Sequence record: OL770074.2
Strand: one strand, 5' to 3'
DNA: 64,000 nt
Source of the DNA: Escherichia phage vB_EcoM-RPN187
Positions 1-64,000 of the stretch are shown piece after piece. Position numbers and translations under genes: made by a program. Numbering within the stretch: the stretch's first letter is position 1; every line of letters begins with the position of its first letter. Below the pieces are notes generated by a model. That model made no database searches. It saw only the letters and a list, made by a program, of their open reading frames with translations, and was not told where the DNA came from.

Positions 1-519
1 CTCGGGTATTATTCTCAATTAGTATCTTATATGGGTATGCTTCAAGATATGATTGCTCCTCTTCCAGATTTTTGGTTTAACTCTGCAAACGAGCAATTAA
101 AAGTAATGGGTAACTTTAGACAGAAAGATGTAATTATCGTTGAATCGTATGTTCGCTCTTATATCGAGACCCATAAGATGGTAGGAAATACAGTAGGGTA
201 CGGTCAAGTAGGTCCTCGTGATTCATGGTCTATTTCTGAACGTTATGATAATCCAGACCATAATTTGGTCGGACGTCGAGTTGGTGAAGATCCTGCAACT
301 AAACAAGGCGCATATAACAACCGCTGGGTTAAAGATTATGCAACTGCATTAGCTAAAGAGCTTAATGGACAAATTCTTGCTAAACATCAAGGTATGATGT
401 TACCGGGTGGCGTCACTGTTGACGGTGTTCGATTAATTGAAGAAGCTCGTTTAGAGAAAGAAGCTTTACGAGAAGAGTTATATTTACTGGACCCTCCTGC
501 AGGTATTTTGGTAGGTTAA
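1..519 (+). CDS. 13: neck protein gp13, C-terminal part (5' end lies outside the window)
   Basis: Frame is open from nt 1 to TAA at 517-519; sits immediately upstream of gene 14 as in T4; identity from synteny and recollection. Confidence 0.6.
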
Positions 520-520
520 T

Positions 521-1156
521 ATGGCAACATACTACAGATTGTATATTACAACATTTGAAACATCCACCGGTATAAAGATTTATGGTGGTAAACACAAATC
601 AGTTTACGAAGACCCTTCAAAAGACCCTTATACTGGGTCTGGTACCTTTATACGAAGGGCCAAAAGAAAATACGGTCCGTCTTGTATAAAAGAAATTATA
701 TGGTCTAAGCCATTTGAATCTAAAGCTCTAATGGATGAAGCTGAAGAGTTACTGGTAGATGAATTATCCATTTTAGAAAATTGCGCAAATCTTGTTAAAG
801 GTGGTGCAGGCGGAAGGTCGTATATTAACCCAGAAGATAATCCATCTATAGGACAAAAACGTTCAGCCCAATCTAAAAAGAAAATGTCTGACGCCGCAAA
901 ATCAAGAAAATGGACTGAAGAAGGGTTAAGAAAACGTAAAGAATCTACAGCAAGAATGTGGAAAGATTTCAAACATAGACATCCTGATTTTTCTGGTTCA
1001 AAGAATCCAGCAGCTCGAAAAGTTAGTGTAAATGGTAAAATATTTAACACCTGCAAAGAATGTGGTGAAGAATTTAATATCACATCAAGCGCGGTTATAG
1101 GCCGATGCAAAAACAACAAACCTAAATGGGCAGGATGGAATTATGTCGACGTATAA
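521..1156 (+). CDS. GIY-YIG-type homing endonuclease-like protein (seg-like)
   Basis: ATG at 521; N-terminus [22 protein letters not shown] fits the GIY...YIG spacing; basic C-terminal half with CxxC...C; overlaps gene 14 start by 14 nt. Confidence 0.5.
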
Positions 1157-1907
1157 TTCAAATTTATTTGCAAAGTTAGAAAACCGAGAAGGCTATTCTA
1201 AAACTAATGAAACCGAGATTTTAAACAAATACGTGAACTTTAACAAATACGAAAATAGTCAGACATTAGCCGATGTTCTAGTGGCAGAAAGCATACAGAT
1301 GCGCGGTATTGAATGTTTTTATGTTCCACGTGAATATGTTGCCGTGGACCTTATCTTTGGTGAGGACCTTAAAAATAAATTTACTAAAGCATGGAAATTT
1401 GCTGCATATCTGAACTCTTTTGAAGGTTATGAAGGAGCGAAATCGTTCTTCAGCAACTTCGGAATGCAAGTTCAAGACGAAGTTACATTATCTATTAACC
1501 CAGGTCTTTTCAAACACCAGGTCAACAATCAGGAGCCCAAGGAAGGTGATTTAATATACTTCCCAATGGATAACAGTTTGTTTGAGATTAACTGGGTTGA
1601 ACCATATGACCCATTCTATCAAGTAGGTAAAAATGCGATTCGTAAAATTACTGCAGGCAAGTTTATTTACTCTGGCGAAGAAATCAATCCGGTGCTTCAG
1701 AAAAATGAAGGTATCAATATACCTGAATTTAGTGACTTGGAACTTAACCCTGTTAGAAATCTTGACGGTATCCATGACATTAATATCGATGAATATTCTG
1801 AAGTTGAGCAAATCAATTCAGAGGCAAGTGAATACGTTGAGCCGTATGTAGTAGTTAACAACCGTGGTAGACAAAATTCACCATTTGACGATGGGTTTAT
1901 GAATTAA
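1143..1907 (+). CDS. 14: neck protein gp14
   Basis: 254 aa; N-terminus and length match T4 gp14 as recalled; ATG at 1143. Confidence 0.85.
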
Positions 1908-2781: not shown

Positions 2782-5107
<2,326 letters not shown>

Positions 5108-13164: not shown

Positions 13165-13434
13165 TTATTTCTGTGCAATTTCGATGTAAGTTTTCAAAAT
13201 ATTTTGCCAATTAGGCATACCTTCTTGGACATATGCCGGAGAACCATCTTTGTTTTTGAATGACGCAAGTTTATCAGTGGCCCAATAACCTTTAGCTCGA
13301 GCTTCGGAATCAACTTTCATCCATACTTTGTTGAAGGCATTACCATTAACTTTTGCACCATATTTTTCTACTAATCTAACTGCTTCAGCTTCCAGAACTT
13401 TTAAAGTATCTCGTAAGAAACGTGCTTTAGTCAT
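13165..13434 (-). CDS. hypothetical protein, antisense-oriented early gene between 23 and 24
   Basis: 89 aa, ATG at 13434 preceded by GAGGAG; own early-type promoter upstream; no recognisable motif. Confidence 0.5.
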   Translation of the reverse strand: MTKARFLRDTLKVLEAEAVRLVEKYGAKVNGNAFNKVWMKVDSEARAKGYWATDKLASFKNKDGSPAYVQEGMPNWQNILKTYIEIAQK

Positions 13435-33463: not shown

Positions 33464-33912
33464 AAAGAGTCTCTTAATAGGTTTAACACATCAATAAATT
33501 CAGCTTCGGTTAGTATTGTATCATCTTTTGTTAGACCGCTAGCCATGCTGTGCTTCAAAATTTTTCCTTTAGAGGCTTGTAAGGCATCACGAAACCCCTT
33601 GTTTTGGATCGCGGCTTCAAAATATGCATTTGTGTATAATTCTTTCCACGCTTCGGAGTATCTTGAAAATGGAACTCCTAACCAGAAGAGAGTCCCACGG
33701 TCCTGAGCTCTTGCATAAGACCTTCCGGCTTGCTGTGCAGCCAATCCAGACAACCTAAATATACGTTTTTGTTGTTCAACATTTTTCACCTTACATCCTT
33801 GGAGAAATCCTTCAAGTCCTCCGAATTGAATACCATCCATAACAAAAGGCCATTGAGCAAAGTTACTTAATGCACATGACGGCCATGGAAAATTGCTTCT
33901 GATTTCAATCAT
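33460..33912 (-). CDS. NADAR/YbiA-like (DUF1768) domain protein (T4 30.3 position)
   Basis: 150 aa; ALSNFAQWP...DG...EGFLQGCK resembles the FSNF-WP-DG-EHYFQAQK core of E. coli YbiA as recalled; motif-level call. Confidence 0.5.
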   Translation of the reverse strand: MIEIRSNFPWPSCALSNFAQWPFVMDGIQFGGLEGFLQGCKVKNVEQQKRIFRLSGLAAQQAGRSYARAQDRGTLFWLGVPFSRYSEAWKELYTNAYFEAAIQNKGFRDALQASKGKILKHSMASGLTKDDTILTEAEFIDVLNLLRDSL

Positions 33913-34103
33913 AGTCTTTTAAGGCTTTTGATAATTTCTAATTCAGAACTCATGCGAACGTCTTCAGTTCCATCGACCCATAGGACGGTGTAGGCTTCTT
34001 TAATTTGTGTATTACCCAATTTAAAAGCAGGTAGAACCTTGGAAATCATGCCAGGAATACCTACACCTTTTAATTGAACTGTTTGTGATAAGAATAGTTG
34101 CAT
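33909..34103 (-). CDS. hypothetical small protein
   Basis: 64 aa; ATG start; ATGA overlap with the upstream gene. Confidence 0.4.
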   Translation of the reverse strand: MQLFLSQTVQLKGVGIPGMISKVLPAFKLGNTQIKEAYTVLWVDGTEDVRMSSELEIIKSLKRL

Positions 34104-34390
34104 TAGAACCTCATCTGAAAGCCATGAGATTTAACATTACCACCATAGATGTCAGAGGTATTGACTTCACGGGCGACACTTGGGTCGATATTGATAACAT
34201 GGTTGAGCTTAGTGATTGCTAGGGTATCCCGACCATTAACAGTACGGAATTCTACTGGGCATACAACATCGGCATAAGCCTTAATAGATTCACGAGTAGG
34301 TTGTTTGTCGGCAGGAACATCTTTACCCGCTTTAGAGAAAACAACTTCACAGAAATTTTTACGAGTATCGAAATAAGTGGTCATAAACAT
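34103..34390 (-). CDS. hypothetical protein
   Basis: Start placed at ATG 34390 (GAGGA 8 nt upstream, 95 aa); the ORF-track ATG at 34423 lies inside a stable hairpin. Confidence 0.4.
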   Translation of the reverse strand: MFMTTYFDTRKNFCEVVFSKAGKDVPADKQPTRESIKAYADVVCPVEFRTVNGRDTLAITKLNHVINIDPSVAREVNTSDIYGGNVKSHGFQMRF

Positions 34391-34406
34391 AATATTTTCC
34401 TCAATG

Positions 34407-34429
34407 GAGGCTTCGGCCTCCATTTTTAA
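34407..34429 (+). other. stable hairpin GGAGGC-UUCG-GCCUCC + T5, plus-strand oriented, inside the minus-strand 30.x cluster
   Basis: ggaggcttcggcctcc followed by atttttaag on plus; the UUCG loop and U-run are on the strand opposite to the local genes. Confidence 0.4.
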
Positions 34430-44021: not shown

Positions 44022-45200
44022 TTAGAAATATTTTTTGTATGAATTGATTACATTTTGGTCTACATCATTATCAATTTGTGCGACAAGATAAGAACTGATT
44101 TCAACTTCCTGAGGAGCTGCTTGAACTAAATCAGAGTTCAGATATTCACGAATCCAAGGATACGGATGCTTGGTCGGAGCATCAGTGATTGGGCAGGGTA
44201 AACCACACTGTTTCATACGAGACACAGTCAAGTAATCAACAAAAGCACACATACTCTGCGTATTGATACCTGGACATGTACCGTCTTTAAAGAGGTGTGC
44301 AGCCCATTCCTTCTCTTGACTATTTACTTCCATAAAAATGCCAACTGCTTCTTGTTCACATTCTTTAGCAATTTGAACCCACTCATCACCGTCAGTACCA
44401 GATTGAAGTTGACGGATAATGTACTGAGTACCCTTTAGGTGGAGTTGTTCGTCACGAGCAATGAACTTCATAATCTTTGCATTACCTTCCATAATTTCCA
44501 TATTTTTATGGAAGTTGAAAGTACATGCGAAAGATACATAAAAACGAATAGCTTCCAAGGCGTTAATTACATGAAGGCAAAGATAAAGAGATTTCATTAG
44601 CTCACGCTTCCAATATGTCTCATGCTCAATAGCATCTTCAATAACGTCTTCGTCTGCATTAATTTCTTTTTGGTATTTGATATCAGCTTTAGCGTTTTCC
44701 CAATAACGAGTTTTAACCAGAACATCATCGTAATATTTACCTATTGATTCAGCTCGTTTCATGATTGCTTCGTCTAATACAATCTCATCAAATACCTTAG
44801 ACGGATCGGTATAAAGATTTCGCATAATATGAGTATACGAACGAGAGTGAATAGTTTCGCTGAATGTCCATGTTGCAACCCACGTATCTAATGAAGGGTC
44901 AGAAATCAGTGCCATAAGTACCGCAGATGGGGCTCTGCCTTGGATAGAATCTAATAATGATTGATACTTAAGATTGTTTGTAAAGATGTCCTGTTGGAAC
45001 TGAGGAAGCTTATTGAACTGCGCAGAGTCCAACATCAAGTTTACCTCTTCGGGGCGCCAGAAAAACGAGAGCTGACGTTCAATAAGTTCTTCAAATACTC
45101 GATGTCGTTGAATATCATAACGAGCTAAACCTAATCCAGAACCAAAGAACATCGGTTCATTCAAAACATCAACTTGTTGTGTGTTAAAAACTGTACTCAT
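44022..45200 (-). CDS. nrdB: ribonucleotide reductase small subunit NrdB (intron-less)
   Basis: ORF-track start 45212 is GTG; ATG at 45200 gives MSTVFNTQQVDVLNEPMFFG, matching the T4 NrdB N-terminus as recalled; contiguous reading frame. Confidence 0.9.
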   Translation of the reverse strand: MSTVFNTQQVDVLNEPMFFGSGLGLARYDIQRHRVFEELIERQLSFFWRPEEVNLMLDSAQFNKLPQFQQDIFTNNLKYQSLLDSIQGRAPSAVLMALISDPSLDTWVATWTFSETIHSRSYTHIMRNLYTDPSKVFDEIVLDEAIMKRAESIGKYYDDVLVKTRYWENAKADIKYQKEINADEDVIEDAIEHETYWKRELMKSLYLCLHVINALEAIRFYVSFACTFNFHKNMEIMEGNAKIMKFIARDEQLHLKGTQYIIRQLQSGTDGDEWVQIAKECEQEAVGIFMEVNSQEKEWAAHLFKDGTCPGINTQSMCAFVDYLTVSRMKQCGLPCPITDAPTKHPYPWIREYLNSDLVQAAPQEVEISSYLVAQIDNDVDQNVINSYKKYF

Positions 45201-45252
45201 TATATTTCTCACTTAGTTTAACTCATCCATGAGTAAATTATAATCAAAAGTC

Positions 45253-47508
45253 TTAAAGCTTACAAGCAGAACAATCTTCAGCTTTAGGTGTTTCTAATTC
45301 ATAGTCATCTGTACCTGACCCATCACGAGTGTTATGATAGTAGAGATTTTTTCCGCCAAAGTACCAGAAGTAAAGCAGATCGTCAAGCATTACTGACATT
45401 GGCACTTTACCTTTCTCAAATACCGCAGGGTCATAGTAAGTATTAGCAGAAGCAGATTGGCACACCCATTTCAACATGATAGCAACTTGGGTCAAATAAG
45501 GTTTATTACCTTTCTTAGCAAGTTTCCACGCGTAGTCGTAAAGACTCATGTTATGTTCTATATTAGGAACAACCTGACGGAAGTTGCCTTCTTTAGATTC
45601 TTTAATACTTACTGGACCGCGTGGGGGCTCAATCCCGTTTGTAGAGTTTGATACTTGACTGCTTGACTCACAAGGCATGAGTGCAGACAACGTTGAGTTA
45701 CGAATTCCATGTTCTTTGAGTTCAGCTCGAAGTTCTTCCCAGTCACAGACGTAGTTCGGGGCTGCGATTTGGTCAATCTTTTTATTGTACCAGTCGATAG
45801 GTAATTCGCCTCTAGACCATTTAGTGTCTGAATAATACTCGCAACATCCTTTTTCTTTGGCGAGTTTGATTGAAGCTTTGATAAGGCCATATTGCAATCT
45901 CTCAAACAATTCATGAGTCAAATCGTTAGCGTCTTCATATGAAGCAAAGTTAGAAGTTAACCATGCAGCATAGTTCGTCACACCAACACCGAGGTTTCGA
46001 CGCTTTTTAGCTTTTAAAGCTTCTGGAACCGGATAATCTTGATAGTCTAACAGGTTATCAAGTGCACGAACTTGGACTTCTGCCAATTCATTAATTTTAT
46101 CTTGGTCTTGCCAATCAAATTTATCTAATACAAAAGCAGATAATGTGCATAAACCAATTTCAGCATCAGGACCATTCACATCATTAGTTGGAATAGCGAT
46201 TTCACAACATAAGTTACTCTGACGAATTGGAGCTTTTTCACGAATAAATGGAGTATAGTTATTAGTGTTATCAACAAACTGTGGATAAATTCGAGCGGTG
46301 CCAGAACGTTCAGTCATGAACAATTCAAAGAGTTCTAGTGCTTTGATTCTTTTCTTTCTGATTGTCGGGTCTTTTTCAGCTTTCTCATAAAGCTCACGGA
46401 ATTTATCTTGATCTTCAAAGAACGAGTAGTATAGTTCGCCTGACATTTCGTGAGGGCTAAATAAAGTAATATAATCATTTTTACCAAGGCGTTCCATCAT
46501 GAGGTCATTAATCTGAATTCCGTAGTCCATATGTCGAATACGGTTTTCATCCACGCCTTTGTTATTTTTCAGAACTAATAGGTTCTCTACTTCTAAGTGC
46601 CACATTGGATAATAAGCTGTAGCAGCACCACCACGAATACCACCTTGAGAACAAGATTTTACTGCAGTTTGGAAATGTTTCCAGAATGGAATAACACCCG
46701 TATGTCGAACTTCACCCATACCGATCTTAGAACCTTCTGCACGAAGCATACCAACGTTGATACCGATACCAGCTCGTTTAGAAATATATTCAATAATTGA
46801 TGCTGAAGTTTTGTTAATAGATTTTAACGAATCACCAGCTTCAATAACTACACAACTAGAGAACTGACGAGTTGGAGTACGAGCACCTGCCATAATTGGG
46901 GTAGGCAATGAAACTTGATGAGTAGAAACGGCATCATAAAAACGAATAATATGTTTCAAACGGTCATGAGTTTCGTCTTGGTGTAAGGCCATACCAATAG
47001 CCATGATAGCAAACTGTGGAGTTTCATAAATCTTCCCAGTTGTTTTATCTTTAACTAGATATTTTTCTTTAAGCTGCATAGCACCAGCATAAGTCAGGTC
47101 AAAGTCTCGTTCATGTTTAATCTGTGAATCGAGATAAATGATTTCTTCTGCTGAATATTGAGACAACAACTCAGGGTCGTATTTACCTTCATTAACACAG
47201 TAAGAAATATGGTCGATAAAAGCAGGCGGTTCAAACTGCCCGTATACATCTTTACGAAGTGCAAACATTAATCCTTTAGCGGCGACATACTGATAATCAG
47301 GTTCTTCGACAGAAATCAAGTTAGCTGCAACTTTAATACAAATCTTCTGAATATCTTTGGTGCTCATCCCATCGACAAGATGGGTCTTAATTTCTTCGTA
47401 TAATTCATATGGGTCGATTTGTGTTCCTTCACATTGCCAAGTTAAAACTTGAATAATTTTCTGTGCATCAAAATTTTGAGATACACCACTGCTCTTAGTT
47501 ACTTGCAT
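45253..47508 (-). CDS. nrdA: ribonucleotide reductase large subunit NrdA
   Basis: 751 aa; ATP-cone N-terminus and active-site NLCCEI; C-terminal CSACKL. Confidence 0.95.
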   Translation of the reverse strand: MQVTKSSGVSQNFDAQKIIQVLTWQCEGTQIDPYELYEEIKTHLVDGMSTKDIQKICIKVAANLISVEEPDYQYVAAKGLMFALRKDVYGQFEPPAFIDHISYCVNEGKYDPELLSQYSAEEIIYLDSQIKHERDFDLTYAGAMQLKEKYLVKDKTTGKIYETPQFAIMAIGMALHQDETHDRLKHIIRFYDAVSTHQVSLPTPIMAGARTPTRQFSSCVVIEAGDSLKSINKTSASIIEYISKRAGIGINVGMLRAEGSKIGMGEVRHTGVIPFWKHFQTAVKSCSQGGIRGGAATAYYPMWHLEVENLLVLKNNKGVDENRIRHMDYGIQINDLMMERLGKNDYITLFSPHEMSGELYYSFFEDQDKFRELYEKAEKDPTIRKKRIKALELFELFMTERSGTARIYPQFVDNTNNYTPFIREKAPIRQSNLCCEIAIPTNDVNGPDAEIGLCTLSAFVLDKFDWQDQDKINELAEVQVRALDNLLDYQDYPVPEALKAKKRRNLGVGVTNYAAWLTSNFASYEDANDLTHELFERLQYGLIKASIKLAKEKGCCEYYSDTKWSRGELPIDWYNKKIDQIAAPNYVCDWEELRAELKEHGIRNSTLSALMPCESSSQVSNSTNGIEPPRGPVSIKESKEGNFRQVVPNIEHNMSLYDYAWKLAKKGNKPYLTQVAIMLKWVCQSASANTYYDPAVFEKGKVPMSVMLDDLLYFWYFGGKNLYYHNTRDGSGTDDYELETPKAEDCSACKL

Positions 47509-47851: not shown

Positions 47852-49547
<1,696 letters not shown>

Positions 49548-59144: not shown

Positions 59145-62100
59145 ATGGCTACATTAAAACAGATACAATTTAAAAGAAGCAAAACCGCAGGTGCACGTCC
59201 TGCTGCTTCAGTATTAGCCGAAGGTGAATTGGCTATAAACTTAAAAGATAGAACAATTTTTACTAAAGATGATTTAGGAAATATCATTGATCTGGGTTTT
59301 GCTAAAGGCGGACAAGTTGATGGAAATGTAACTATAAATGGTCTTTTGAGATTAAACGGCGATTATGTACAAACAGGCGGAATGACCGTAAATGGACCTA
59401 TTGGTTCTACTGATGGCATAACTGCAAAAGTTTTCAGATCTACACAAGGTTCATTTTACGCAAGAGCAACAAACGATACATCAAATGCCCACCTTTGGTT
59501 TGAAAATACGAATGGATCGGAGAGAGGGGTTTTATACTCAAAACCGCAGTCTGAAAATGAAGGCGTAATTACAATGCGTGTTCGCCAAGGAACCGCAGCA
59601 GGGGCTCAAAGTTCAGAATTTCATTTCATTTCTACTGATGGCGGTATCTTCCAGGCACGCAAATTAACTGCTTTAACTTCTATTAGTACACCAACTATTA
59701 GTGTTAATTTAATTAATCATGATTCTAAAGCCTTTGGACAATATGATTCACAATCTTTGGTTAACTATGTTTATCCTGGAGATGGCGAAACCAACGGAGT
59801 AAACTATCTTCGTAAAGTTCGCGCTAAAGCTGCCGGAACCATGTGGCATGAAATCTGTACAGCTCAGACTGGCCAAGCAGATGAAATGTCTTGGTGGACG
59901 GGTAATACTCCATCATCTAAACAATATGGTATTCGTAACGACGGCCGAATGGCTGGGCGTAATAGCCTTGCATTAGGTACATTCACTGCAGATTTCCCAT
60001 CTAGTGATTATGGTAACGTCGGTGTAATGGGCGATAAGTATCTTGTTCTCGGTGACACTGTAACTGGCTTGTCATACAAAAAAACTGGTGTATTTGATCT
60101 AGTTGGCGGTGGATATTCTGTTGCTTCTATTACTCCTGACAGTTTCCGTAGTACTCGTAAAGGTATATTTGGTCGTTCCGAGGACCAAGGCGCTACATGG
60201 ATTATGCCTGGAACCAACGCAGCCTTTTTATCGGTTCAAACACAGGCCGATAATAACAATGCTGGAGACGGACAAACCCATATCGGGTACAATGCTGGTG
60301 GTAAAATGAGTCATTATTTCCGCGGTAAAGGCAAAACTAATATTAATACTCAGGAAGGTGTAGACGTTAACCCGGGTATTTTAAAATTAACAACCGGTGC
60401 TAACAGTATTAGCTTTAACGCTGCAACAGGTAATATTGATTCTACATTAGCTTTTCGTCTTAATAAAGGTATAATTATTGATGGGCCTGATAATCAGGGG
60501 TTCCAATTCAATGCTCCGACGGCTGTAGATGGTACTAGAAGCATATACTGGAATAGTGGCACACGCTCAGGTCAAAACAAAAGCCCTGTTACGGTTAAGG
60601 CATGGGGAAGTGCGTACAGCACAGGCGATAAATCTCGTGAAACTGTATTTGAAGTTGGCGACGGACAAGGTTATTATTTTTATGCGCAGCGTGTAGCTCC
60701 AGCTTCAGGATCTACTGTTGGGCCAATTCAATTTAGAATTGCTGGAGCATTATTAACCGGTGGTGGTATTACATCATCCGGCTCGATTGTTACAGAATCC
60801 AGTTTAGTTGCTAATAACGGAATGACTGTAAACGGTCAAGCCAAATTTGGCGGAACAGCAGATGCATTAAGAATTTGGAACTCTCGTTATGGTGCCATTT
60901 TCCGCCGCTCAGAAACATCATTATATATTATCCCAACTAACGAAAATGAAGGGGAAAACGGTGAAATAAACGACCTTCGTCCGTTTAGTATTGAGTTAGG
61001 CACCGGCGCAGTTTATATGAATCACGTTGTTGATATTGGCCGGGGCAAGTTTAAAGTAGAAGCATCCGGTACTACAGCAGGGCAACGTATTACAGTTAAT
61101 ACTGCCTCCGATGCTATTAGAATAAATGCTCCAACACAAGAATCTTCTAACTTCATCCAAGGACGTAAAGCAGATGTTCCGAAATGGTATTTAGGTATTG
61201 GCGATGGCGGCAACATCGTTCGTATGCACAGTTACACCTACTCCCATGGTATTGCATTAAACTCTGATACTGTTGATATAGCTAAACCTCTTAGAATAGG
61301 TTCAGCTCAATTAGGTACTGATGGTAATATTACTGGCGGTTCTGGTAATTTTGCTAACTTGAATACCACAATAAATAACCTTAAGACGGATATTGTCTCG
61401 AGTTACCCAATTGGCGCTCCGATTCCTTGGCCTACTGATACACCTCCTGAAGGCTATGCCATAATGGAAGGTCAAACATTTGATGCTGGCTTGTATCCTA
61501 AGTTAGCTGCGGTGTATCCTTCCGGCACTCTGCCTGATATGCGTGGTCAAACTATCAAGGGTAAACCATCTGGGCGTGCTGTATTAAGTACAGAAGCAGA
61601 CGGTGTTAAGTCACATAGCCATAGTGCAAGTGCATCAAGCACAGATTTAGGTACTAAGACCACTTCTAGTTTTGATTACGGTAGCAAAACGACTTCAAGC
61701 TTTGATTATGGTACTAAGACAAGTAGTACCACTGGCAACCATAACCATACAGTGAGTGGTAATACTAGTTCCGCTGGTGCTCACCAACACGCGCGTTCAG
61801 GCCCTCAGATACAAGGCGTCGTACCCGCTAGCATATTCTATGATGGATACAATAGTGCCGGTCCAAACGGCAACGCTAAAATCACTGGAAGCGTGAGCGG
61901 TGCTACTGCATCGTCGAATATGGCCAAAACTTCTTCAGACGGTGCCCACGCCCATAGTTGGTCTGGTACTACTAGCGCCACAGGTAACCATGCGCATACG
62001 GTGGGTATTGGCGCTCATACCCATTCGGTAGGTATTGGTGCTCATACGCATACTGTTGCAATTGGTTCCCATGGACATACAATAACTGTAAATGCCACAG

Positions 62101-62159
62101 GAAATACAGAAAACACAGTTAAAAACGTTGCTTTTAACTATATCGTTCGTTTAGCATAA
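59145..62159 (+). CDS. 37: long tail fibre distal subunit gp37 (receptor-binding tip)
   Basis: 1004 aa; C-terminal His-x-His boxes ([59 protein letters not shown]) as in T4-type gp37. Confidence 0.9.
61650..61730 (+). repeat. tandem 30-nt repeat in gene 37 (about 2.7 copies, encoding [11 protein letters not shown])
   Basis: ggtactaagaccacttctagttttgattac / ggtagcaaaacgacttcaagctttgattat / ggtactaagacaagtagtacc read directly. Confidence 0.7.
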
Positions 62160-62164
62160 GGAGA

Positions 62165-62185
62165 AGGGACTTCTGTCCCTTTTTA
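62165..62185 (+). terminator. intrinsic terminator downstream of gene 37
   Basis: gggac-ttct-gtccc followed by TTTTT. Confidence 0.6.
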
Positions 62186-62189
62186 TAAT

Positions 62190-62741
62190 ATGAAACTCTA
62201 TCACTATTATTTTGACACTAAAGAATTTTACAAAGAAGAAAATTACAAACCATTAAAAGGCGTAGGATTTCCGGCTCATTCGACACCAAAAAAACCTTTA
62301 GACCCTAAAGAAGGCTATGCTATTATATTTGACGAACGCGAGCAAGAATGGGTATATGTTGAAGACCATCGTGGAAAAACGGTATGGACTTATGATAAGC
62401 AAAAAATTGTTATTGACACTCCAGGTGCTCTTCAAAATGTTACTACAGAAGAACCCGGCGAATTTGACATTTGGACCGACGACGGGTGGAAGGAAGATGA
62501 AGCATATAAACGCGTAGTTCAACGTGATAAGAAAATTCATGAACTCTATAAATTATTCAGTGTTTTAAGTTCTCTTATTGACGCAGAGGTTGCTAATAGA
62601 GAAGAAAAACGAAAATTTAAAGAGCTCAAAAAATTCTTTGCCCTTTTAGAAAAGCATGAACATCTTGGCGGTGAATTCCCTAAATTCCCTGACCTTGAAA
62701 ACAAATCTATTGTCAAAGCGATTATAAATATCTTTAAGTAA
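62190..62741 (+). CDS. 38: gp38 tail-fibre assembly chaperone (T4 type)
   Basis: 183 aa; MKLYHYYFDTKEFYKEENYKP...KHEHLGGEFP resembles T4 gp38 rather than the longer T2-type adhesin. Confidence 0.85.
   Translation: MKLYHYYFDTKEFYKEENYKPLKGVGFPAHSTPKKPLDPKEGYAIIFDEREQEWVYVEDHRGKTVWTYDKQKIVIDTPGALQNVTTEEPGEFDIWTDDGWKEDEAYKRVVQRDKKIHELYKLFSVLSSLIDAEVANREEKRKFKELKKFFALLEKHEHLGGEFPKFPDLENKSIVKAIINIFK
62723..62730 (+). promoter_or_regulatory. late promoter (TATAAATA) for holin t, inside the 3' end of gene 38
   Basis: Exact TATAAATA 21 nt upstream of the t ATG, followed by AAGGAGG. Confidence 0.55.
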
Positions 62742-62750
62742 GGAGGTATT

Positions 62751-63410
62751 ATGGCAACACCAAAAGTATCATCTTCGCCTAGTGATATTCTATTTGGGTT
62801 GCTAGATCGTATTTTCAAAGATAACGCTACTGGAAAGGTTTTAATGTCTCGAGTAGCGGTAATTATTCTTTTGTTCCTAATGGCACTAATATGGTACAAA
62901 GGAAGTATTTTGCTGGATTATTATGTAAGAGCTAAGTATGATACTTATACTGAAATAATCCAAAAAGAACGAGCTTTACGTTTTGAATCTGCGGCTCTAG
63001 AACAACTGCAAATAGTTCATATCTCATCTGGTGCAGATTTTAGTGCTGTGTATTCTTTCAGACCTAAAAACTTAAATTATTTCGTCGACCTTATAGCTTA
63101 TGAAGGCAAACTACCTAGCACAATTTCTGAAAAGTCCCTTGGCGGATTCCCGGTGGATAAAACGGCTAATGAATATATAATTCATTTAAGTGGCCGTCAT
63201 TTCTCATCTAAATCAGAATTTGCATTTTTGCCTACAAAATCTAAGACTGCCGAACTTTCTTATATGTATAGTTGTCCATACTTTAATTTGGATAACATCT
63301 ATGCTGGAACTGTGACGATGTATTGGTATAAGGGGAGTAATATACTTGAGGAAGATCGCTTAGCGGCTATATGCAACCAAGCGATCCGAATACTAGGAAG
63401 GGCTAAATAA
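62751..63410 (+). CDS. t: holin T
   Basis: 219 aa; single transmembrane segment VAVIILLFLMALIWY and large periplasmic domain; close to T4 T as recalled. Confidence 0.9.
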   Translation: MATPKVSSSPSDILFGLLDRIFKDNATGKVLMSRVAVIILLFLMALIWYKGSILLDYYVRAKYDTYTEIIQKERALRFESAALEQLQIVHISSGADFSAVYSFRPKNLNYFVDLIAYEGKLPSTISEKSLGGFPVDKTANEYIIHLSGRHFSSKSEFAFLPTKSKTAELSYMYSCPYFNLDNIYAGTVTMYWYKGSNILEEDRLAAICNQAIRILGRAK

Positions 63411-63683
63411 TTAGTTGTTAGAATACATCGCTAAATGACGATAAATATTTTCAAAACCTTCATTGAATTCACTAATCAGTGTTTTCTTTTCTTCGGCAGT
63501 TAAATTTGTAATTAGTTTTCTGAACGAATTCTGATTTAGCTGCCGACCATCTTTTTTAATTCCAATCTCATTCAAGAATCCGATGAAACTTGCTCGGTCT
63601 TCAACAATATCTTCCCTAGAGAATTTAATCAAAATAGAAGCAATAGTAATAATTTCACGTACGATTTCAATATCTTTATTCAT
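63411..63683 (-). CDS. asiA: AsiA anti-sigma70 factor
   Basis: 90 aa; MNKDIEIVREIITIASILIKFSREDIV... matches T4 AsiA as recalled. Confidence 0.85.
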   Translation of the reverse strand: MNKDIEIVREIITIASILIKFSREDIVEDRASFIGFLNEIGIKKDGRQLNQNSFRKLITNLTAEEKKTLISEFNEGFENIYRHLAMYSNN

Positions 63684-63729
63684 AACGTTTTATTCATTCC
63701 ACTTAGTTGATATGGATATAGTACCATTA

Positions 63730-63891
63730 TCAGTGTTGATTGTAAACGGCTTTTTCTACGCTTTTAACGTAATTGGTATAGTCTTCCTGTTCATACGAGT
63801 GTAAGGCCAAGAACTGAACTAATAGTTCATTATAGACTAAAGCCTCACGCTCACGTTCGGCCTCTACTACGTTCTGAAGATTATGACTCAT
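63730..63891 (-). CDS. hypothetical small protein (T4 asiA.5 position), 53 aa
   Basis: ATG at 63891 preceded by AAGGA; the ORF-track start at 63945 would overlap the upstream gene by 65 nt. Confidence 0.3.
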   Translation of the reverse strand: MSHNLQNVVEAEREREALVYNELLVQFLALHSYEQEDYTNYVKSVEKAVYNQH

Positions 63892-64000
63892 ATCGTTCCT
63901 TATAACTATCAATATAGTCCTGTATGTCGAAGAATGATATTTCATATTCTAGGGCATTAAGAGCCCGTTCTTCAGTATAGTCAGAACCAAAGACGATAGT
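63881..64000 (-). CDS. partial CDS, 3' end only (upstream gene continues beyond the window; arn-like by position)
   Basis: 40 codons open from 64000 to TAA at 63881-63883 on the minus strand in AT-rich DNA; identity unknown. Confidence 0.3.
   Translation of the reverse strand, partial: TIVFGSDYTEERALNALEYEISFFDIQDYIDSYKERYES

Follow-up and report, generated by a model that had tools for sequence, protein, structure and literature searches.

The window analyzed here is a stretch of 64,000 nucleotides (nt) from Escherichia phage vB_EcoM-RPN187 (OL770074.2), a T4-like phage of the genus Mosigvirus (Straboviridae, Tevenvirinae). Close to the left end of the window, the genes for the neck proteins gp13 and gp14 are separated by an open reading frame (ORF) that codes for a protein of 211 amino acids (aa) and is the subject of this work (Table 1). 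An earlier note on this DNA placed the ORF at positions 521-1156, one nucleotide past the gene 13 stop and with a 14-nt overlap with gene 14, and the ORF coordinates confirm this description: the ATG at 521 is separated from the gene 13 stop by T520 only, and the overlap with gene 14, which starts with the ATG at 1143, reads ATGTCGACGTATAA. The gene 13 ORF is open at the first base of the window and accordingly begins outside of it. An antisense ORF of 163 aa (628-1119) was considered spurious because it is closed in the orthologous loci.

Table 1. Features of the gene 13-14 region of vB_EcoM-RPN187 (positions within the window)
Feature	Coordinates	Strand	Basis
Gene 13, 3' part (neck protein gp13)	1..519	+	PHROG 211 head-tail adaptor Ad2; annotation of relatives
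Translation initiation region native to gene 14, now used by the endonuclease ORF (AGG 513-515, gene 13 stop TAA 517-519, T520)	513..520	+	Identical sequence upstream of the gene 14 ATG of T4 and of HEG-less Mosigvirus
622-bp segment missing from HEG-less relatives (insertion)	521..1142	+	Two-piece match of relatives; pairwise alignment
Homing endonuclease ORF (predicted), 211 aa, ATG start	521..1156	+	ORF list; PHROG 314; SegC similarity; empty-site alignment
Divergent GIY-YIG catalytic domain (predicted), aa 1-98	521..814	+	
NUMOD3-like basic linker element, aa 105-127	833..901	+	Pfam NUMOD3, 16.9 bits (cut-off 20.4)
I-TevI-type helix-turn-helix DNA-binding domain, aa 159-204	995..1132	+	PF20987; clade profile against 1I3J; Foldseek
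Gene 14 Shine-Dalgarno (AGGA), located within the 3' end of the endonuclease ORF	1132..1135	+	Read from the sequence
Gene 14, neck protein gp14, 254 aa	1143..1907	+	Pfam T4_neck-protein, 2e-127
Recoded gene 14 5' patch (gene 14 nt 4-48)	1146..1190	+	Fixed-difference scan; 96-nt blastn
HEG, homing endonuclease gene.

We denote the genomes with and without the endonuclease ORF at the 13/14 junction as HEG+ and HEG-, respectively. The first 2.4 kb of the window are 98.5-99.6% identical to 12 Mosigvirus records (among them S143_2, moskry, mogra, F2, SQ17 and VIPECOMC06), all 12 of which contain the ORF, with 99.5-100% protein identity among the Mosigvirus copies. Approximately 140 further records, with 95-99% identity, align with the 2400-nt query as two separate blocks that total 1778 nt; exactly 622 bp of the query are missing from them. 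In these HEG- genomes, gene 14 starts one nt past the gene 13 stop (…GGTTAATATGGCAACTTATGAT…), and the same holds for T4, where, in line with the earlier note, genes 13 and 14 are adjacent with a 1-nt spacer and the published list of endonucleases contains no 13/14 entry (PMC2988022, Table 1). Given that the HEG- relatives and T4 share the empty arrangement and that the T4 list lacks such an entry, the empty site is the ancestral one and the ORF is an insertion. The exact left edge of the insertion is ambiguous within ATGGCAAC, which is common to the insert and to native gene 14. In the alignment with the empty site, the last 120 nt of gene 13 show 3 differences from the HEG- phage vB_Eco_F27, each at least 98 nt away from the junction. 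The base composition of the insert carries no foreign signature (36.6% GC, compared with 36-39% in the flanks).

The comparison of the 13/14 junction across T4-like genomes, proposed in the earlier note, revealed presence/absence polymorphism in three genera. In addition to Mosigvirus, related ORFs occupy this junction in 9 of about 30 records of Gaprivervirus (SP18, VR26, RZ and others) and in 16 of about 110 records of Slopekvirus (KpF2, Kiwi, phT4A and others), as well as in three further lineages, metagenomic or other T4-like, that are represented by P0002, P0003 and P0009. These related ORFs are 53-64% identical to the ORF of the window. Within Mosigvirus, the ORF together with the adjoining recoded start of gene 14 (the patch discussed below) shows a mean of 2.7 differences per 673 nt, all singletons, among six HEG+ genomes; in the same genomes, the next 673 nt on the right show 8.5 differences and the 520 nt on the left show 13.5. 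The flanks of the HEG+ genomes are no closer to each other than they are to those of the HEG- phage KAW3E185. Two Slopekvirus alleles of the ORF, those of KpF2 (L004 2498-3112) and phT4A (L025 2299-2913), differ at 173 of 616 nt (72% identity) within flanks that differ by 1-4%, which suggests either independent invasions of one site or an old polymorphism with homogenized flanks. Altogether, the distribution of the ORF and the low diversity of the cassette fit recent, repeated spread into diverse genomic backgrounds.

The insertion is closely fitted to the gene 13-14 operon. The endonuclease ATG occupies the position that the gene 14 ATG holds in empty sites, with identical sequence upstream, and the first four codons of the endonuclease, ATGGCAACATAC (MATY), correspond to the native gp14 N-terminus, ATGGCAACTTAT (MATY). 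At the other end, the new gene 14 ATG is preceded, 7 nt upstream, by AGGA, and codons 1-5 of gene 14 (ATG TCG ACG TAT AAT) overlap the endonuclease tail, …YVDV*. The overlap ATGTCGAC.T.T.AT is also present in two metagenomic relatives (P0002 and P0003), equivalent overlaps are found in SP18, KpF2 and G5211 (ATGCGTAA, ATGCGTGA and ATGATTCAATATAA, respectively), and purine-rich motifs equivalent to AGGA occur in the SP18, KpF2, P0002 and P0003 cassettes. The cassette is thus predicted to take over the gene 14 initiation region and to supply a replacement Shine-Dalgarno sequence, ATG and first codons. A side observation on annotation concerns SP18 (L003 3129-3231), where gene 14 is annotated from the internal ATG at 3231; the ATG at 3129, which overlaps the endonuclease stop, yields the conserved N-terminus MRNSYDASLFARLEDGTGY, so the deposited SP18 gene 14 probably lacks its first 34 codons.

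The late-promoter box TATAAATA is present neither in positions 1-2400 of the window nor in the 3 kb upstream in one relative (L001), and scans for sigma-70 promoters and terminators were at chance level. Given these results, the ORF appears to be a cassette without its own promoter that is carried on the transcript of genes 13-14; segC, segF and segG of T4 have been described as promoter-less cassettes (PMC2988022). RNA hairpins at both junctions were no better than those of shuffled sequences (z 0.4-1.3). One AU-rich 8-bp hairpin at 1138-1159 (GAAUUAUG...UAUAAUUC) could place the start codon of gene 14 and the stop codon of the endonuclease in a single stem; it does not exceed shuffled controls and is not conserved in the related cassettes.

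The HEG+ genomes differ from the HEG- genomes not only by the ORF itself. In a scan that covered -3.5 kb through +4.2 kb, five HEG+ Mosigvirus genomes were compared with four HEG- ones; 15 fixed differences that separate the two groups fall within nt 4-48 of gene 14, and one more lies in the variable gene for fibritin, 2,796 nt upstream. Of the 15 patch sites, 11 are synonymous and 4 change residues (A2S, D5N, K6S and G16E), against a background divergence of about 1%. When 96 nt over the Mosigvirus patch were used as a blastn query, the 12 HEG+ records were at least 99% identical and the best HEG- match was 79%. No HEG- record above 79% could be found as the donor of the patch, and the nearest cassettes, those of P0002 and P0003, share only its first ~15 nt, that is, the overlap motif given above; the donor appears to be absent from the sampled genomes.

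Linkage between the ORF and a diverged start of gene 14 is also observed in the other two genera. In Slopekvirus, comparison of HEG+ genomes with the allele prevalent among HEG- phages (AYL, Miro) showed differences in gene 14 at nt 5-7 and, in a sharply bounded patch, at 27 positions of nt 20-86; the next 650 nt contain only 5 differences and the 1250 nt upstream contain 2. The Slopekvirus patch is present at 100% identity in 21 records, 13 HEG+ and 8 HEG-, and is missing from about 90 HEG- records. The eight HEG- carriers of the patch (L011 1299-1390 and seven others) retain the native codons 2-3; these patch-only genomes may represent conversion tracts that ended before the ORF or, alternatively, later losses of the ORF. 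In Gaprivervirus, the HEG-linked differences form clusters at -24..-1 and +4..+90. In Mosigvirus, every one of the 15 HEG-linked fixed differences near the insertion falls within gene 14 nt 4-48, which places the likely target within tens of nt of the insertion; most simply, the site of recognition or cleavage would be located in gene 14, among its first ~100 nt. A stronger proposition, a target that necessarily includes the insertion point itself, had been drawn from KpF2 and a HEG- Slopekvirus phage whose alleles differ at gene 14 nt 5-7 only; it was withdrawn, as this HEG- phage belongs to the minority that shares the HEG-linked patch.

The assignment of the protein to the Seg-like GIY-YIG homing endonucleases, which was the central claim of the earlier note, is supported by the similarity to T4 SegC, by PHROG 314 and by a broad sequence profile that reaches both I-TevI domains. 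The ORF matches PHROG 314 ("homing endonuclease") over its full length (2.6e-37) and, in PADLOC, solely "HEase" models. In a BLASTP comparison, the protein is 33% identical to T4 SegC over aa 4-197 (~194 aa; pairwise E 5e-15), with the aligned motif pairs (ORF/SegC) RLY/FYLY, IYGGKHK/IYVGVHK, PYTGSG/GYMGSG, KRKYG/IKKYG and EAEELLV/EAEIVTE; by tblastn, the E values for T4 SegC are 4e-9 to 7e-8, and a SegD-like sequence is 32.5% identical. A profile built from a 39-sequence alignment (A3), which combines the ORF clade with canonical Seg-like proteins, some of them with PF01541, matches in the Protein Data Bank (PDB) both the I-TevI catalytic domain (1LN0, 1.8e-9) and the I-TevI DNA-binding domain (1I3J, 9.2e-9); since the alignment includes canonical Seg-like proteins, the link to 1LN0 is a transitive argument. 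Glu75 and Asn90 are invariant in this alignment and are paired with E75 and N90 of I-TevI. The catalytic domain displays the beta-beta-alpha-beta-alpha fold.

The sequence landmarks of the catalytic domain are RLY (6-8), YGG (21-23), His25, YxGSG (37-41), KYG (50-52), Glu75, Asn90 and GG (94-95). Across the clade (12 members, 53-64% identity), the invariant residues are Arg6-Leu7-Tyr8, Tyr21-Gly22-Gly23-Lys24, Asp35, Tyr37, Gly39-Ser40-Gly41, Lys50-Tyr51, Glu73, Glu75, Asn90 and Gly94-Gly95. The N-terminal string in which the earlier note recognized a GIY-(10 aa)-YIG spacing corresponds to ORF residues 4-25; both motif tyrosines are indeed there, Tyr8 in RLY and Tyr21 in YGG, but they are 12 rather than 10 residues apart. 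Both tyrosines are present in 12 of the 12 clade members and align with the tyrosines of FYLY and IYVG in SegC via a 2-residue gap. The invariance of Tyr8, Tyr21, Glu75 and Asn90 at an overall identity of only 53-64% argues for selection on catalysis. Taken together, the N-terminal domain is a predicted divergent GIY-YIG domain of the Seg type. Two further features of this domain were observed. Cys55 and Cys88 (683-685 and 782-784), which stand in place of the Phe in NF..EIL and the Tyr in YN of the canonical Seg proteins, are invariant in the 12 catalytic domains. Furthermore, the ORF of the window has His25-Lys26 (593-598) where the 11 closest relatives have Arg25-His26, the sole clade departure at a near-invariant position; the change to His25 looks benign as it matches the T4 SegC motif YVGVHKT.

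The C-terminal half of the protein is, as the earlier note stated, very basic: aa 99-211 include 26 Lys/Arg and 12 Asp/Glu residues, with a pI of 10.06. With the single protein as query, NCBIfam models matched this half only. The Pfam I-TevI DNA-binding model (PF20987) scored 22.6 bits over aa 159-204, below the cut-off of 27, and phmmer against PDB gave a weak match to 1I3J alone (E 0.12). The clade-only profile matched 1I3J at 2.7e-5, and Foldseek returned 1i3j_A with a probability of 1.00. The linker (aa 105-127) falls into a part of the structural model with lower confidence (predicted local distance difference test scores of 71-78 for aa 91-120). These results support the domain order of a nuclease (aa 1-98), a basic NUMOD3-like linker and an I-TevI-type helix-turn-helix (aa 159-204). 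The CxxC...C cluster, which the earlier note regarded as typical of the DNA-binding tail, exists as Cys178-x-x-Cys181...Cys196 but is not conserved and does not form a zinc finger. These are the only three cysteines in aa 99-211, and all of them belong to the helix-turn-helix region; among the 12 clade members, Cys178 is found in the ORF of the window alone, Cys196 in five, and Cys181 in all. The region aligns with the helix-turn-helix of I-TevI and not with its zinc finger, and the linker contains no Cys4 arrangement, so the zinc finger reading was rejected.

We consider it probable that the ORF is a promoter-less, free-standing homing endonuclease gene of the Seg type, with a GIY-YIG nuclease domain, which was inserted at the Mosigvirus 13/14 junction; the nuclease activity of the protein, the cut position and homing we infer from sequence comparison. 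Under this scenario, the endonuclease gene would be transcribed together with the late neck genes and translated from the former ribosome-binding site and start codon of gene 14, and the 3' end of the ORF would provide the new Shine-Dalgarno sequence, ATG and first codons, such that the essential gene 14 would still be made. In a mixed infection, the enzyme would cleave the DNA of a HEG- relative close to the junction of genes 13 and 14, with the initial ~100 nt of gene 14 as the most likely location, and repair on the template of the carrier genome would copy both the endonuclease gene and the recoded gene 14 stretch next to it. Protection of the carrier could come from this recoded stretch, from the interrupted state of its own site, or from a combination of the two.

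Several observations weigh against this scenario. The search with the GIY-YIG hidden Markov model PF01541, which the earlier note put forward as a check, failed to match the 211-aa protein at E<=1; neither did PF01541 or PF19835 (SegE_GIY-YIG) match the closest clade members (SP18, KpF2 and P0009) at this threshold, and PF19835 did not match the ORF. T4 SegC itself reaches 18.8 bits with PF01541, for which the cut-off is 22.6. The clade-only profile (A2) yielded no 1LN0 match, and the I-TevI catalytic domain was also missed by Foldseek. In the profile alignment to 1LN0, the segment of I-TevI with Arg27 is an I-TevI-only insertion, so that the counterpart in the ORF is unassignable; among the candidates, Lys24/His25 and Arg46/Lys50, none could be established, and T4 SegC is in the same situation. 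Further, Gly takes the place of the Ile of "YIG", and the beta-hairpin exceeds those of SegC and I-TevI by 2 residues. With respect to the target, the cut sites of the characterized T4 Seg enzymes are hundreds of bp away from the respective genes (PMC2988022), and a target within ~100 nt is not the norm of the family. Finally, the heavy ordinary recombination of T4-like phages could also give rise to a patchy distribution and mosaic flanks.

Some of these same features would be expected of a decaying or domesticated endonuclease which has kept DNA binding, has lost cutting and is retained since its 3' end supplies the gene 14 start, leaving no possibility of a clean deletion. The escape of the catalytic domain from both Pfam GIY-YIG models, the lack of an assignable Arg27 equivalent, the replacement of YIG by YGG and the dependence of gene 14 translation on sequence within the ORF are all compatible with such decay. 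Nevertheless, we regard decay as unlikely, given that the ORF is full length in 12 of the 12 Mosigvirus copies and in every clade member, that the GSG and KYG motifs are invariant along with the four catalytic-site residues in spite of the divergence of the clade, and that T4 SegC, which is listed as active (PMC2988022, Table 1), shares the His after YxG and has no obvious Arg either. The low cassette diversity in diverse flanks and the two diverged Slopekvirus alleles also point to recent spread rather than to decay. Very unlikely, in our judgment, is a nuclease of phage competition, the main role of which would be to cut co-infecting relatives (marker exclusion), with the spread of the gene as a by-product: sequence data cannot separate this role from homing, PADLOC matches homing-endonuclease models only, and the tight linkage of the ORF with the recoded patch is a prediction of gene conversion from a nearby cut.

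Some GenBank names ("intron-associated endonuclease", "putative group I intron endonuclease") imply that gene 14 contains a group I intron in its 5' end and that this intron encodes the ORF. In favor of an intron, the ORF opens with the first four codons of gp14, and joining MATY to ...NSNLFAKLE would restore a gp14-like N-terminus. Yet the 636-nt ORF fills the whole 622-bp insert, leaving no room for a ribozyme core, and every lineage keeps an in-register gene 14 ATG and Shine-Dalgarno sequence at the ORF 3' end. The Rfam group I intron model gave no match in 300-1500 even at E<=10, and on this result, together with junction RNA folding that does not rise above shuffled controls, the intron was rejected as extremely improbable. 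An intein was ruled out, as the ORF and gene 14 are in different reading frames.

Beyond the homing endonuclease gene inferred above, a more specific hypothesis can be put forward, which we hold only tentatively, at somewhat less than even confidence. The 13/14 endonucleases could form a distinct free-standing GIY-YIG lineage that acts in the manner of the intron-encoded enzymes, with a target in the start of an essential gene, tens of nt from the insertion. Each would be part of a self-contained cassette that combines a start-codon-capturing ORF with a replacement ribosome-binding site, ATG and recoded, cut-resistant 5' end; the site would have been invaded repeatedly in at least three genera, and the patch-only genomes would represent short tracts.

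The comparison with known systems places the ORF closest to T4 SegC and the other SegA-G proteins. The motifs xxY...Y(I/V/G)GxH, D.Y.GSG, A.KKYG, E...E and (Y/A)N..GG.GG are common to both, as is the domain order of nuclease, NUMOD3 linker and I-TevI-type helix-turn-helix; like the seg genes, the ORF lies between conserved phage genes, without its own promoter on the host transcript, and is patchy among relatives (PMC2988022). Unlike SegC, the ORF resides at the 13/14 junction, where T4 has no such gene, carries RLY/YGG instead of GIY/YIG, a hairpin extended by 2 residues and the invariant Cys55 and Cys88, and matches neither PF19835, which SegC passes, nor PF01541. It also starts on the own start codon of the downstream gene and overlaps the new start of that gene, and its predicted target is within ~100 nt of the insertion, as opposed to hundreds of bp for the Seg targets. 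I-TevI, the endonuclease of the T4 td intron (1LN0/1MK0, catalytic; 1I3J, DNA-binding), shares the two-domain logic and the fold and is the best structural match for both halves of the protein, with the C-terminal helix-turn-helix aligning residue by residue, including the terminal W..W.Y. The ORF differs from I-TevI in that it is not intron-encoded, lacks the linker Cys4 zinc finger and an identifiable Arg27, and is shorter (211 vs 245 aa), and the sequence similarity of the catalytic domains is visible only through bridging Seg-like sequences.

The linkage of a free-standing endonuclease to a diverged stretch of an essential neighbor is known from SegG/gene 32, SegF/gene 56, mobE/nrdB, SegH and Hef; there, as at the 13/14 junction, the pattern fits gene conversion and self-protection by target polymorphism (PMC2988022). 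In contrast to these cases, the diverged stretch at the 13/14 junction lies directly against the endonuclease gene and shares sequence with it, and the start codon of the neighbor is part of this stretch. The deposited 13/14 orthologs (SP18 "segC" ADO19516, VR26, phT4A, KpF2 and G5211, and the identical ORFs of moskry, mogra, F2 and SQ17) belong to the same clade, with the same site and architecture, and bear only similarity-based names (endonuclease, homing endonuclease, intron-associated endonuclease, hypothetical protein). A literature search found no paper that describes the ORFs of the 13/14 junction. The ORF is an uncharacterized but already annotated member of the Seg family, with an unusually divergent catalytic domain, at a site that is empty in T4.

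With regard to the rest of the window, the statement that nrdB and td are not interrupted held: both nrdB (44022-45212) and td (47852-48712) are continuous ORFs. The claim that the ORF is the only mobile-element-like gene in the window likewise held for Seg-type and HNH queries, other endonuclease families being outside this screen: phmmer queries of the Seg type (five) and the HNH type (one) were run against all 348 window ORFs of at least 50 aa, and the ORF at 521-1156 was the sole match. Phage F2, which is ~98% identical to the window, has an HNH endonuclease ORF that splits nrdA and a segD-like GIY-YIG ORF between genes 23 and 24 (L008 1857-2567 and 36172-36831). At these two sites, the window contains an intact nrdA of 751 aa (45253-47508, minus strand) and an 89-aa ORF between genes 23 and 24 (13165-13434, minus strand). 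Given that F2 carries two endonuclease genes that are missing from the window, endonuclease content varies among near-identical Mosigvirus genomes. Several stretches of the window have no megablast match to the otherwise collinear F2 (33909-34426, 48715-49314, 59342-60556 and 60938-64000), which points to possible further variable cassettes or replaced genes. F2 (NC_054913.1) is listed in RefSeq as Tequatrovirus efftwo; its 13-17 region is 99.3% identical to those of phages classified as Mosigvirus.

The locus does not change the current understanding of homing; it is ordinary in kind and tidy in its details. What it adds to the Seg family is an uncharacterized insertion site, the 13/14 junction, and a divergent sub-clade which the standard GIY-YIG profiles miss, so that surveys based on hidden Markov models under-count such genes. 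It also provides a compact natural example of a selfish gene that sits on the start of an essential gene without harm, having taken the start codon and supplied a new one together with a stretch that is probably resistant to cutting. Finally, the sharply bounded HEG-linked patches in three genera predict the position of the cut.

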